The notes beneath the pieces were generated by a model. It ran no database searches and was not told where the DNA came from. It was given only the letters and a program-made list of their open reading frames with translations. From Octopus vulgaris (Eukaryota): 64,000 bases of DNA. Each line of letters starts with the position of its first letter. Positions within the stretch are counted from its first letter, which is position 1. A program made the position numbers and the translations under genes. This document shows, in pieces, positions 25,387-33,830 of this stretch. Where the stretch lies: the NCBI GenBank assembly GCA_951406725.2, contig OX597836.1, positions 37,262,001 through 37,326,000 on the forward strand. The letters are read 5' to 3'.

Positions 25387-26014
25387 ATGACATTATGGCC
25401 TTCACCTGGTATGTGACTTTTCTGATGACGTTTCATCCTTTAGTTTTTTCCTCTTCTTTTCACTCGTTCTGTCTTCCTGGTGATCTTATTAAGACATATC
25501 GATTTCTCTAAGTGCGAAGCTTGCAACTATACAACCTAATGTATTTCGAGTTATCTCGTCATACGCGTTGAAGGCACATGAACTAGCAATTAGGCTCTAA
25601 CGCTCATAAGATCATGGGTTCAATTCCTACATCAGGTGACGTATTATGTCTTCAGCTTTCAATTCCTACATCAGGTGACGTATTATGTCTTCAGCTTTCT
25701 TCGGTCCGCTCAGCTGGAAACCTCAGACGGTCTAATGCTCTTGCAAATTCTTTCTTTTTCTAACAGATATTTCTTCGATTTCACGTTAGCACAATATGTG
25801 GAATGGACGAAAGAGTGTCCTTATCTGCACTTAAAATAATCAGCTTGCGTGCTGCCATGGTATTCTTGTCTTTAAATGACGGACCTTGGGTAGCCAAGGA
25901 ATGACCAGTCGCTTTCATATATATATATGCATGAGTGCGAACATATAAATTTACGTCTGCATTTGCAACGCCCGGTATCAGTGCTAGTGTATATATATAT
26001 ATATATATATATAT

Positions 26015-26227
26015 AATTGCAGCGTGGAAGGTGTGCAGCGTGGAAGGTGTTTGTAAGCCATTTAAGAAACACACAAAAGCCGTTCGATTCACTTCAACAT
26101 TTAAGTTTAATTTGTCGAAATATTTTCGTCACTTTAAGACCGCGACCTGTTCACTGACAAAGCACGGATTTTTGTCAGTGAACAAGTCGCGGTCTTAAAG
26201 CGACGAAAATATTTTGACAAATTAAAC
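26015..26227. mobile_element. (TA)n-flanked element with 57-bp inverted repeat carrying paired hammerhead motifs
   Basis: 26105-26161 pairs with 26171-26227 (3 mismatches). Confidence 0.75.
26171..26221 (+). ncRNA. Type I hammerhead-like motif with G3-C8 swapped core (mirror copy at 26111-26161 on the minus strand)
   Basis: tttgtca-GTGAACA-a-gtcgc-ggtcttaaa-gcgac-GAAA-atat-TT-tgacaaa: 7-bp stem I, 5-bp stem II, palindromic stem III. Confidence 0.65.
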
Positions 26228-26420
26228 AAATGTATGTATATATATATATATATCATATTAAGGGCTAGCTCTTTGCCTTATGTCTAAATATAAATAAATG
26301 AATATATCTAAAGGGAATAGTTAATAAACTTTTCCCTTATGAGATTTTTCACGCTAACTACTTGATAATTTATTATAAAGATTTTATCGTATATCTGTGT
26401 ATATGTGTGCGTGTAGTCTA

Positions 26421-27698
26421 TATCAAGCTATTCCATAAGTAATGTCCGGATTTCAAATATGAAAAAACAACTTATCAAATCTGACACTTTAGTGACTTAA
26501 TCGTCAATATAGTTTTGAGGATTATCTATGACATCTTTCCATCAACTTATAAGCTTTTTTAATCCCATTAGTGAAAGACTCTTTCGGTTTCGAAGAGAAC
26601 TCTGATAGGTCAGTGTCGGCTTCCTCAATTGTTTCGAGAGTTAATCCATCCAAATGATTCTGTAAACTACGGAACAAATGGTAATCTGAAGGAGCAAGAT
26701 CTGGGGAATAAGGCACATGAGCAATTTTCTGCCAGTCAAGTTCTTCGATCTTCTGGACGTGAGCTTTGCAGTGAGAGGTCTTGCACTGTCCTGGTGAAAC
26801 ATCACTCCTAAAGCAGGCCTTTTCCCGTCAAAGCAGCATCCAAACACTTTAATTGCTGACAGTAGATGTGAGCATTGATTGTTGCATTAATTGGTGGCAA
26901 CTCAAAGTGGCTCACTCCTTTGAAATTCCACCAAACGGAGAGAAGAACCTTCTTCTCATAGAATTCCATTTTCGGTTGTGGTTGGGCTTTTTCCTCTTCA
27001 CCAAATCAATGTTAACAATGCTTATCATTTTTATAAAAAAAAAAGATATTTTTCATCACTGATCACCAGTCTATCTAAAAAGGGCGAGATGAGTTCACGA
27101 GAACGCAGGGAAGATCTGATATTCACTCGGGATTTGCAGCTGACCTGAGACAAATCATGAGACACGCATTTTCCGATTTTGGGGACCTTTCCAAGAAGAT
27201 AGCAGTCAATAGTTATATGGCTTGAACGAAGTTGCTTGCCAATTTTTCAACTCAAACAGCTTTATCTCTTTCTAAATTCCACTGAAAGGAGCTTGTCATC
27301 AAACTCAATTTGAGGTCCTTTTTGGGCCTCATCATCAAGGCTGAAATCTCCACTTCTCAATTTTACAAGCCGAGCTGACTTTTGCAGGTTCTTTCATTCG
27401 GGCACTCTTCTTCATACTCTGAGTGAATATTTCGAGTGTCTTCAGATGCAGAATCCTCTTTCTTAAATTTTTAAAACATTATGTACCTCAAATGCTCCTT
27501 AGACACATTCATGTTTGAAGAGCTATAATTAGTGAAATTTCAATTAGATTATCGTGCAAAATGAAATTTAAATAGTTTAGATATGTTCAAATACATTTAA
27601 ATATGACTCGATGCTATTACAATTTTCTAAAGTACTGGTAAGGCGTTTGCAAATTGAAAATATAAAAGTCCGGACATTACTTACGGGATGACCTGATA
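26421..27698 (-). mobile_element. Full-length decayed mariner (DD34D-type) transposon
   Basis: TIRs tatcaagctattccataagtaatgtccgga / tccggacattacttacgggatgacctgata, ~1.28 kb. ORF fragments HQDSARP and PYSPDLAPSDYHLFRSLQNHL are frameshifted. Confidence 0.92.
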
Positions 27699-30475: not shown

Positions 30476-31849
30476 TCTGGGGAACATTTATGTTCATCTG
30501 GTTACCAGTAATGAAAATACAACCCATCTGAGGTAAATGCCAGGCAGCAAGTAGAGGTATCGATACCACTACTCGACAACTTGGGGAGACGTCTTATCTC
30601 AGACTGATAAATACTATGTGAGGGGAATTAAGTTGACACAGAACTGTGCGGATACTTGTCGAAAAGATCCTTCCTATCTTGAAATCCTTCACTTAATACG
30701 TCACCCAATCTAACACCATCACCAGGATCCTGGGCCAATTTATCGGTGGCTCCTTAGTTACAAGCAACTGATCTAAGTTTCCCATCTGAGAACGGTCTAA
30801 GAATCAATTCCTCTTTTCATATCAGTGATGGAGGTTCTGAAATGGTGGTTATGTCTACTTCTGTCACTCTCACTAAAACCAATACAAAACAAGTAGACCT
30901 CATTGAACAATAGCCGCAGACATGATTATATTTCTAAATCTTTACAGGAGCAATTAAGTGCAATGTCTTCACATAGTACCAAAAAGTTTAATTCATATTC
31001 TACAAATATGTTTTTGTTTACCAGTATACGTCATGCGCAGTAATATTATAAAAATTGAGATAGAATTTTGACAATTAAAATTTTCTTCAGGCAAATTAAA
31101 ATTTTCAAATGGTATTTATATGAATCCAATATACTGGCGTAGACATAGAGTAAGTATGATTTTATTTGTGCGTGTAACTGCGTATGGGAGGCGAGTGGGA
31201 AAATAAAACATGAATAGAATCTGAACATTTCTTCTCAAATCTGACAGTGAGACCAAAACTTTTTTTTTAACAAAAGGGAAAGCAATTTTCTTAGCTGAAT
31301 GTCTTTTATTCATGGGAACCTAACATTTATTTTGTTTACTGCTGCAATTTTTGCTAAGGAGCCATCAGAGTTGCTAAAGTTATCTCAATACAAAATTACA
31401 AACTTGAATTAAGTCTTTGAATACCCCACAAAATAAAGAAAGCTGTCTAGAAAGTTAAATAGTAATGTATTCAATAGAATAGAAGATATTCTGTTGCAAT
31501 GTCATGAAAATACATCTTTCATGCAATCGCCTTGTCAAATACGAAAATACAACGAAATATTTGACAAGATACCTAAACTTCTTTATTGAAATCTAAATCA
31601 ATAGTAGCAGTATAGAAATTAGAACTGTCTTTTAAACATAACTTGGAATGAATCATTTTGTCATTTCTGTTCTTTATTTTAGTTTTTAAATGTTTTTTTT
31701 TCTATTCTCCATTTCGTTAACTGAAAACTATGTATAGCTGCAATGTCTACAAGTAAATTAGTAAGTAATTTTGTGTTGCACTGAATTTATTCGAGCGGGC
31801 GAAGTTATATTTTCTATTGATAGTGTACTAACAAAAGTCATTAGTTATT

Positions 31850-33830
31850 TCTATGTTGTGCGAGAGTACGATGCCTCCTGGCAAAAATGGAACTTAACAA
31901 AAAATGAGGAGGACGATTTTATAAACTACGCCGGAGTAGTCAACTGTATGTGCGAAAATGTCAAACTCCAGGATCTCACCCAGGGCATGTTCAAATCACT
32001 TACCTTCGTGCAAGGACTTGTAGCACCAGAAGATAGAGAAATTCGGGCAAGGATTCTCTCGAAAATGAAGCAAGTAAACCAGGATTTATTTCTACAGACC
32101 ATCGAAGTAGAATGTCTGACTATGGGGAATCTTAAACATGATATTTAAAAAAATACAACATAAAGACTCTGCAAAAATTGAAGTGTGTCGTCCGGGAAGT
32201 ACAATAAAAAAGTGTCAGGGCCCCAATCCGTTTTATGGTTGTGGAGGTCTACACTACAAAAATGATTGGCTGTTTTAAAATAGAAAGTGCTATAGCTGGG
32301 AGAAGCTGGGATGCAGGAGTTCTCATTATAGATCAAGACTACGTTATAGAACATAGAAACTTCTAAGGTGTTTTCAGAGGAGAGTAATTGCGACAGAAAA
32401 ACAAAATTCATGCACGTAAAAATAAGTGATGTGAATACCAAGTTACAGTTAGACACAGTTAGTGACATTTCCATTATAAATGCCGATACTTAGCGAAAAA
32501 TTGGTAAACCGAGTTTACATAAAACAGTGGAAATATGTGGTGGTGTAACGGTCGATAAATTACATTTCATGGGCAAAATATTTTTCGATGTCGCATTTCG
32601 AGGAGAGACACACGAAGCAAAATTATTCAAAGTATTTGACAATAAATACACACAGAGGATTGTACAGATACACAAGATTACCTTTTGGATTAAAGTTTGC
32701 ACCAGAAATACTCCAGCTAATCATGGATATTATGTTGACTGATTGTGAATTTGCAATCCCGTACTTGGAGAATATTTTGATCAAGGGTAATTCTCGTGAA
32801 CAAGATTTGGAACACATAAAATCTGTGTTTAAGAAAGTTAAACCTTTCGGGTTCACTTTGAGGGAAGAAAAATGTGAATTATTTCTACCCCAATTTAAAT
32901 ACTGAGGGCAAATAATTGATAAAAATGGCAGACGTCCTGAACCATTGAAAGCAGACACAAGGAATATGCCTGCGCCGACAAATATTCCAACTCTACAAAC
33001 ATTTCTGGGATTGGCAAACTATTTTCAAAGCTACATTCCTAATATGCACAAGTTAAGGGCTCCATTGAACGACTTATTAAAAAAAAGAGGTAGAATTTGT
33101 CCGCTGAATGCCAGAACACGTTTTGAAGAAATAAAAAAAATTCTTATCTCAAACCTGTCCTTAGTACATTACGACCCAGAAATGGACATCATTGTGGCGT
33201 CTGATGTTTACGAAAAACGTATTAGGTGCAGTTCTATTTCATAAATACGAAGACGGAAGTACAATACCAGTGGTTCATGTTTCCTGCTCGCTAATAGCAG
33301 CAGAGGAGAGGCCCTAGCAATTATTTTTGCAGGTTGCTGCTTGGCGGAAGGTTTTCTTTTTTTATGGTAAAAAGACTATAGACTTTTGCTGTCGATTTAT
33401 GGATTTTAGAATGGGTTACCGACAGATTCTGCAAACCGCCTGCAAAGCCGGAGTGTAATATTACTAAATTATTATTTCAAAATGCAATATATTCCATCTA
33501 AAAAAATCTGTCAAGCAGACTGCCTTTTGAGATTAATTCCAAAAAATATGGAACCACTAGAAGATACAGTTATAGCTGCAAGCAGAAAGTGGAATTAAAT
33601 GTGTTATGAACTTTAAACAAGAACTACCAGTAACTACACAGGATATGAGAACGAAAGCTCTAACTTATGAGTATATTACCGAAATAAAAGAAGGCTAGGC
33701 AGATGGCTTTGTTATCAGAAATATTGGAAGTATGGTGTATCTAACTAAAGGCTCACGCAGTGAACATAACAGGCATATGACCCAACTAAAGAAGTGGCAT
33801 TCCCAAATCCAATACCAGTAAAAGGGAATG
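31850..33830 (+). mobile_element. Decayed, internally deleted Ty3/Gypsy LTR-retrotransposon gag-pol remnant
   Basis: Protease motif LQLDTVSDISII (~32443); RT YTRLPFGLKFAPEILQ...PYLENILI (YLDD degenerate); FLGLANYF; RNase H DIIVASD. Many stops and frameshifts; no LTRs seen. Confidence 0.9.

Follow-up and report, generated by a model that had tools for sequence, protein, structure and literature searches.

The question raised by this locus is whether a short hairpin in the genome of Octopus vulgaris, both arms of which resemble hammerhead ribozymes with an unusual core, is a unit in its own right, and whether its arms are able to cut RNA. It lies in a window of 64,000 nt (assembly GCA_951406725.2, contig OX597836.1, positions 37,262,001 to 37,326,000 of the forward strand), which is the whole stretch of DNA that was analysed and to whose first letter, as position 1, the coordinates below refer. 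An initial annotation of the window had described 57-bp inverted arms, each made up almost entirely of a hammerhead fold with the core GUGAACA and the pair G3-C8. Hammerhead numbering and core roles are used here in their standard form, in which pair 3-8 positions the general acid. An inverted-repeat comparison of the window recovered the arms as described (57 nt, 95% complementary, separated by a 9-nt spacer), and the hammerhead-type motif with this core was found again in each of them by sequence and by a cross-family alignment. The features of the locus, with element positions counted from a fixed 5′ site (+1), are the following:

25990 to 26015, no strand: left-flank (TA)n target, from sequence.
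26016 to 26161, minus strand: left arm, in which the 5′ end of a Penelope-like element (PLE) is present as an inverted copy that spans about +17 to about +147, the short 3′ end.
26044 to 26064, minus strand: start of the PLE reading frame in the left arm (ATG at about +116; coordinates approximate).
26105 to 26161: left 57-nt arm of the inverted repeat.
26111 to 26161, minus strand: mirror hammerhead motif of the left arm (G3 at 26154, C8 at 26149, U17 at 26118).
26161 to 26227, plus strand: right arm, a PLE copy that begins at about +7 in element RNA coordinates, followed by (TA)n.
26171 to 26227: right 57-nt arm of the inverted repeat.
26171 to 26221, plus strand: hammerhead motif of the right arm, minimal type I, assigned by sequence, alignment and pair counts, with putative cleavage.
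26171 to 26177 with 26215 to 26221: stem I of the right-arm motif.
26186 to 26190 with 26200 to 26204: stem II of the right-arm motif.
26208 to 26213: palindromic stem III of the right-arm motif.
26178, 26183, 26185, 26205 and 26214: G3, C8, inserted A, G12 and U17 of the right-arm motif.
26214/26215, plus strand: predicted cut in the right arm.
26233 to 26252, no strand: (TA)n on the right flank, from sequence.

Each arm, followed from the centre outward, opens with a 7-bp stem I and the core GUGAACA, after which an inserted purine leads to a 5-bp stem II whose closing pair is G10.1-C11.1; then come GAA, a palindromic stem III of 6 nt and, last, U17. In the left-arm motif, position 1.1 (26117) is C and the first pair of stem I is broken. 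The left arm extends past 26105 to about 26016, like other copies of the family, carries an internal duplication of 16 nt (26018–26049), and contains a frame start homologous to the N-terminus of a sister-family ORF. In the right arm, the outer part (the remaining pLTR and the tail) is gone after about 26227–26233. For the hairpin, the folding energy is -83/-86 kcal/mol, at a z of about -19; 0 of 200 shuffles equalled it. No hammerhead family appeared among the 150 Rfam matches listed, out of 160 at E up to 1; those listed were microRNA entries and were rejected as microsatellite-driven. Elsewhere in the window there is a perfect 39-nt tandem duplication (25619–25696), a stretch at 26522–26827 (minus strand) that we take, by its motif, to be a broken fragment of a mariner-like transposase, and, presumably, broken pieces like a Ty3/Gypsy polyprotein at 31765–33244 (plus strand).

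A DNA search of the genome (2.8 Gb, rich in (TA)n) yielded 1,690 first-look candidates, 40 of which were scored. An exact pattern with positions 3, 7 and 8 left free matched 3,045 arms of the family to which the hairpin belongs (family A), and an exact pattern for the pLTR end gave 6,233 matches, with 0 matches in the controls for both. For an unbiased sample, 70 places were taken from the pLTR-end match list (the first 30 and 40 of the 70 others listed), all of them on one contig (C1), and 66 loci were left after the removal of 4 overlapping duplicates. These comprise 31 head-to-head pairs, 34 solo copies and 1 other arrangement. The inverted arms of other copies reach far past 57 bp and end at about +147 or +205, and in the sample all 31 inverted pairs combine a short with a long 3′ end. 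By a loose test, flank duplications of at least 8 nt were present in 27 of the 66 loci, many of them within TA runs; they vary in length (8–14 nt), and the hairpin junction varies from copy to copy. Other arrangements were also seen: multiple direct repeats of the unit's first 55 nt at an inverted junction (L050, 1259–1809), three direct unit copies 2.6–3.5 kb apart with no PLE ORF (L129, L130; the copies in L130 carry G3.A8), and one hairpin insert on contig C1 that has multiplied as part of a bigger dispersed repeat (L075, L091–L095).

At the other end of the unit, 39 of the 98 sampled arms start at 0 to +7, 3 extend upstream past the reference, and loose ends heap up at +1 in three contig runs. 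These copy ends point to a putative RNA start site at +1. We also considered an intron acceptor at this position and set it aside as less likely, as the short copies have no common upstream exon and no joint was seen; a start site fits the fixed 5′ end better than splicing does. The base preceding +1 at 27 ends was G in 11, a templated C in 11, T in 3 and A in 2; several of the Gs belong to the partner arm, and G was found in 4 of 5 clean solo cases. An untemplated G thus often stands before the fixed 5′ end (+1, L133 8162), as would come from a copied cap, a hint that is confounded by partner arms. Coding constraint from a small upstream ATG was dismissed, since its frame shifts between loop-length subfamilies.

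The parent of the hairpin copies is a Penelope-like element with RT and GIY-YIG domains. Additional upstream sequence is held by 508 copies, and 4 of the 30 upstream-extended copies that were fetched lead into the GIY-YIG domain of one family. Locus L133 encodes 530 aa with the RT motif YVDD, a CxxxCxxC linker and also a C-terminal GIY-YIG (PF01541, 23.1 bits vs. a cut-off of 22.6), a piece on which Pfam RVT_1 had no match at E 0.01, and locus L146 holds a 1025-aa frame between inverted pLTRs. The features of EN+ PLEs are present: a single ORF with RT and C-terminal GIY-YIG, a 3′ pLTR with an inverted, 5′-truncated partner, and a tail on one end that is made of the ORF's first codons. The ATG at +116 opens a stretch of 31 codons, stopping at the tail, that matches the N-terminus of the 1312-aa ORF in the sister family. 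A direct 5′ pLTR leading into the ORF was seen in sister family B (L149), the fetched family A copies being 5′-truncated. The best named protein relative (52% identity) is labelled as octopus. A second, different RT and GIY-YIG element lies beside one family A copy (L131, 1927–4365).

The same anatomy is given for PLEs in the parts of PMC8557442 and PMC3846280 covered here. By features alone, family A resembles the Neptune/Nematis EN+ elements of PMC8557442, with which it shares the C-terminal GIY-YIG, the CX2-5CxxC linker that precedes it, (TA)n targets and the inverted 5′-truncated partner with a tail, although its tail measures about 56 nt against the 30–40 reported there. Similarly, in PAc of Anolis, a Poseidon element (Frangieh et al. 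2024, PMC11167929), the pLTR end and tail are the ORF start, the two internal sites at which RT starts correspond to family A's short and long ends, the targets are AT-rich, and the hammerhead is near the 5′ end of the RNA. Poseidon, unlike family A, is described without the CX2-5CxxC linker, and the ATG of PAc lies within stem II, whereas that of family A is about 56 nt past the predicted cut. The window hairpin lies where two inverted PLE 5′-end copies of about 150 and 205 nt meet, and its locus is an ordinary dead PLE insert, truncated and mutated. The hairpin had initially been treated as a meaningful unit, a view that is not supported, the layout being the usual inverted-pLTR insertion of PLEs, present in 31 of the 66 unbiased loci. 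Because its two motifs lie on opposite strands, any transcript has one arm antisense, so the hairpin cannot be two ribozymes; in a transcript through the locus the duplex would win, so that no action is expected of the window copy.

The genome-wide collection of copies that had been proposed as a check shows that G3-C8 is the state of the family and not a product of decay, being kept in about 89% of the 3,045 arms (241 arms without C8, 90 with C8 and without G3, 11 with both changed; the counting patterns differ by one flanking letter). The canonical C3-G8 was found in 0 of the 11 doubly changed arms, and a looser canonical pattern gave 0 matches. Family A thus departs from the literal C3 and G8 consensus and keeps a Watson-Crick 3-8 pair, and its triplet, UUU, conforms to the NUH rule. 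Positions U4, G5, A6, A9, G10.1, C11.1, G12, A13, A14, A15.1 and U16.1 are each conserved in at least 89% of the arms compared (66–82), the lowest being C11.1, which lies at a CpG (68/76). No core change reaching 3% was seen in four runs labelled A–D, which are possibly of the same species. The mismatch G3.G8, which a hand count found in 48 of the first 100 of the 241 non-C8 arms, outnumbers C3.C8 (12/90) about tenfold. This excess (L260–L289 and the non-C8 list) is scattered across subfamilies; an ancestral G8 subfamily was considered and rejected, as the G8 copies have no common diagnostic sites.

Related families show from which state this pair was derived. Sister family B has 57% RT identity to family A, and families C, D and E gave 1,645 pattern matches, of which 30 loci were read; B, C, D and E all carry C3-G8 at the same place in the pLTR, with the same inserted G. 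In an alignment of 17 hand-picked rows from five families, in which the core is ungapped, pair 3-8 is CG in 12 rows and GC in 5, the GC rows all belonging to one family, and pairs of stems I, II and III also vary on both sides. Stem cells are paired in 97.3% of cases vs. 21–47% in slid controls, while the count of covarying pairs was matched by 60 of 500 shuffles, a test inflated by related rows. The annotation had named a family consensus without paired stems as the result that would speak against it; stems I, II and III pair and covary across families, and this covariation supports a predicted three-way junction with stems I and II. Among more distant metagenome relatives (7 loci, 33–37% identity), L325 carries C3-G8, L321 U3-A8, and the near-identical L323 and L324 C3-G8 with G12 lost, all four with a palindromic stem III and U17; 4 of the 7 loci had no usable downstream motif or were a duplicate locus. 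Family A comes out as sister to the B–E clade, with its C3-G8, at supports of 98 and 100, and the metagenome rows fall outside, in a tree built from 180 columns of the endonuclease region (11 rows, some partial). Since sisters and outgroups have C3-G8 or U3-A8, G3-C8 was derived once, on the family A branch, as a compensatory swap in one event. On that branch, along which the protein diverged by about 50%, 11 of the 13 conserved positions of the core have kept their base, and the two that changed are the partners of one pair, with pairing restored.

Two further details of the arms look different when seen across the families. The stem II difference (gcgac vs. gtgac), said to keep pairing through G-U, is present, and it carries no evidence of selection because it is a CpG transition found on both strands across the family. 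The C that had made the cleavage triplet seem ambiguous is likewise present in the minus copy, as a change at position 1.1; the proposed UUC register fails, since C17 of the older B and C copies falls in the column of U17, which sets the register as UUU. Family B itself contains many near-identical 1312-aa ORFs, with a long Asn-rich insert in the N-terminal part (L148), as in rotifer PLEs, and it drifts off the hammerhead consensus as it gets younger (L148, 6883–6935; L230–L259; L296, L318), from A9 with C17 to A9C and then to C17U in the newest copies. In its youngest subfamily, 96 of the first 100 matches, out of 3,214, carry A9C, while U17 is seen in the newest copies; with A9C fixed there, active families evidently can fix uncompensated core changes.

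Indirect traces of cutting were sought in the copy ends. None of the 98 unbiased arms starts at +59 to +62, and starts at +60 occur in 2 of 54 partner arms from other sets, one of them explained by microhomology. Modelled from +1 onward, the RNA makes stems I and II at probabilities of 0.6–0.95 and leaves stem III unformed; the modelled dimeric fold has -28.8 kcal/mol, vs. -28.2 for two monomers and -32.7 for another dimer. Runs X15, X16 and X23 recovered nothing, and in the contig runs X7 and X11 the RNA nature is guessed, contigs being unable to show ends. Engineered C3G/G8C changes partially rescue cleavage, also in a protein-dependent PLE hammerhead (PMC11167929, PMC8495972, as far as covered here), and a G3-C8 variant is mentioned in the covered part of PMC3884650. 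By analogy with these, the family A motif probably cuts RNA, weakly.

Taken together, we consider it probable that two short PLE 5′-end copies meet head to head in the hairpin and that their G3-C8 hammerheads would be weak cleavers, acting as a dimer or with the element protein. Starting from what was observed (the family anatomy, the parent ORF, a G3-C8 that is fixed, and relatives that have C3-G8 or U3-A8), we propose the following course. The RNA would start at the fixed site, 23 nt before G3, and the element protein would nick both strands of (TA)n DNA. Reverse transcription would then begin at two internal sites, at about +147 and +205, both within the opening 31 codons; the two cDNAs would extend to the 5′ end of the RNA, where they would be linked into an inverted pair with a short and a long arm. 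Cutting by the motif would fall after U17 (+59), between cap and ATG, and also at the downstream pLTR of tandem transcripts; uncut RNA would be the source of inserted copies. The window copy is a decayed insert in which the duplex would block the fold.

An alternative with the same PLE origin holds that the motif is a catalytically dead or near-dead relic in a lineage with no need of cleavage, where drift would have fixed G3 and C8 and any retention of the fold would serve protein binding or structure; we see it as a real possibility, short of probable. It would accommodate the fixation of A9C in the most active sister subfamily, the excess of G3.G8 arms and the lack of sampled copies starting at the cut site. 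Cleavage also appears dispensable in vitro, where hammerhead mutants of PAc insert unaffected (PMC11167929, in the part covered), and Naiad PLEs thrive without hammerheads (PMC8557442, likewise). A relic would not, however, be expected to leave 11 of 13 positions intact and change just the two partners of one pair so that they pair again, a pattern for which a post hoc estimate of chance is about 1/78 × 1/3.

It is quite unlikely that the hairpin is itself a functional RNA, whether as the precursor of a microRNA or siRNA or as an antisense switch keeping the ribozyme off. The duplex is indeed very stable, and one run of guessed RNA nature (X11) has extra T>C and A>G changes of the kind double-strand editing gives; yet the junction differs among copies, 34 of the 66 loci are solo, the window copy is truncated and mutated, and the layout is a known product of PLE insertion in the covered parts of PMC8557442 and PMC3846280. 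The changes in question lie at L133 8140–8400 and number 11 T>C and 3 A>G at a threshold of 2%, compared with DNA-like runs that have 2 and 1, respectively, at 3%, an excess that possibly stems from A-to-I editing of hairpins. That the unit is a MITE with a chance likeness to a hammerhead, as its long inverted arms, thousands of copies and lack of a hammerhead among the 150 Rfam matches listed out of 160 might suggest, is highly improbable and is refuted by the solo copies and by the arms' being contiguous with an RT-GIY-YIG ORF, to which are added unequal arms, variation at the centre and not the ends, flank duplications of variable length (8–14 nt) and covariation across families.

Closest to the family A motif are the minimal type I hammerheads described from metazoan PLEs (Cervera and de la Peña 2014, PMC4209133, in the parts covered here). 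Like those, the family A motif lies in the pLTR and has an extra nucleotide separating position 9 from 10.1, G10.1-C11.1 and a short palindromic stem III that implies dimers; U17 is frequent there as well (in Fig. S3, a hand count gives about 24 of the 56 rows), and inverted pairs on opposite strands are also noted. By analogy, the family A motif would be expected to work like such a hammerhead, with catalysis predicted. It differs in pair 3-8, for which the 56 rows of Fig. S3 contain 53 C3-G8, 2 U3-A8, 1 U3.G8 and no G3, and the descriptor given there could not have found G3-C8. The core of PAc is also C3-G8, with G3-C8 as an engineered rescue only, whereas in family A it is natural (PMC11167929, in the part covered). 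Natural 3-8 covariation is also reported by Perreault et al. 2011 (PMC3088659), but section 8 names only U3-A8, and the covered part of PMC13282606 contains no mention of hammerheads.

The initial annotation had described G3-C8 as known mainly from engineered mutants and could name no natural precedent. A large survey of PLE hammerhead variants, reportedly made by Lunse et al. in 2017, could hold G3-C8. That survey, Przybilski 2007 and Hammann 2012 lie outside the literature examined, within which no natural G3-C8 was found, in support of that statement for this literature, and family A apparently presents a hitherto unreported, family-wide natural compensatory variant. More tentatively, and with considerable doubt, it might be the first natural active G3-C8 hammerhead, in a clade of PLEs that would have tuned its ribozyme down (G3-C8 in family A; A9C and C17U in the sister) into a protein-gated switch uncapping its own mRNA, and searches with CUGANGA fixed would miss entire classes of these variants.

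For the biology of these elements, the short-plus-long pairs (31/31) and the pile of 5′ ends provide genome-scale support for internal initiation of PLE reverse transcription. The only natural 3-8 swaps in the literature examined are to U3-A8, which makes the G3-C8 of family A the third Watson-Crick form in nature, and, polarised by sister and outgroup families, it argues for selection on the fold in a PLE. Family A and its sisters thereby constitute a natural variant series that is ready for assay.
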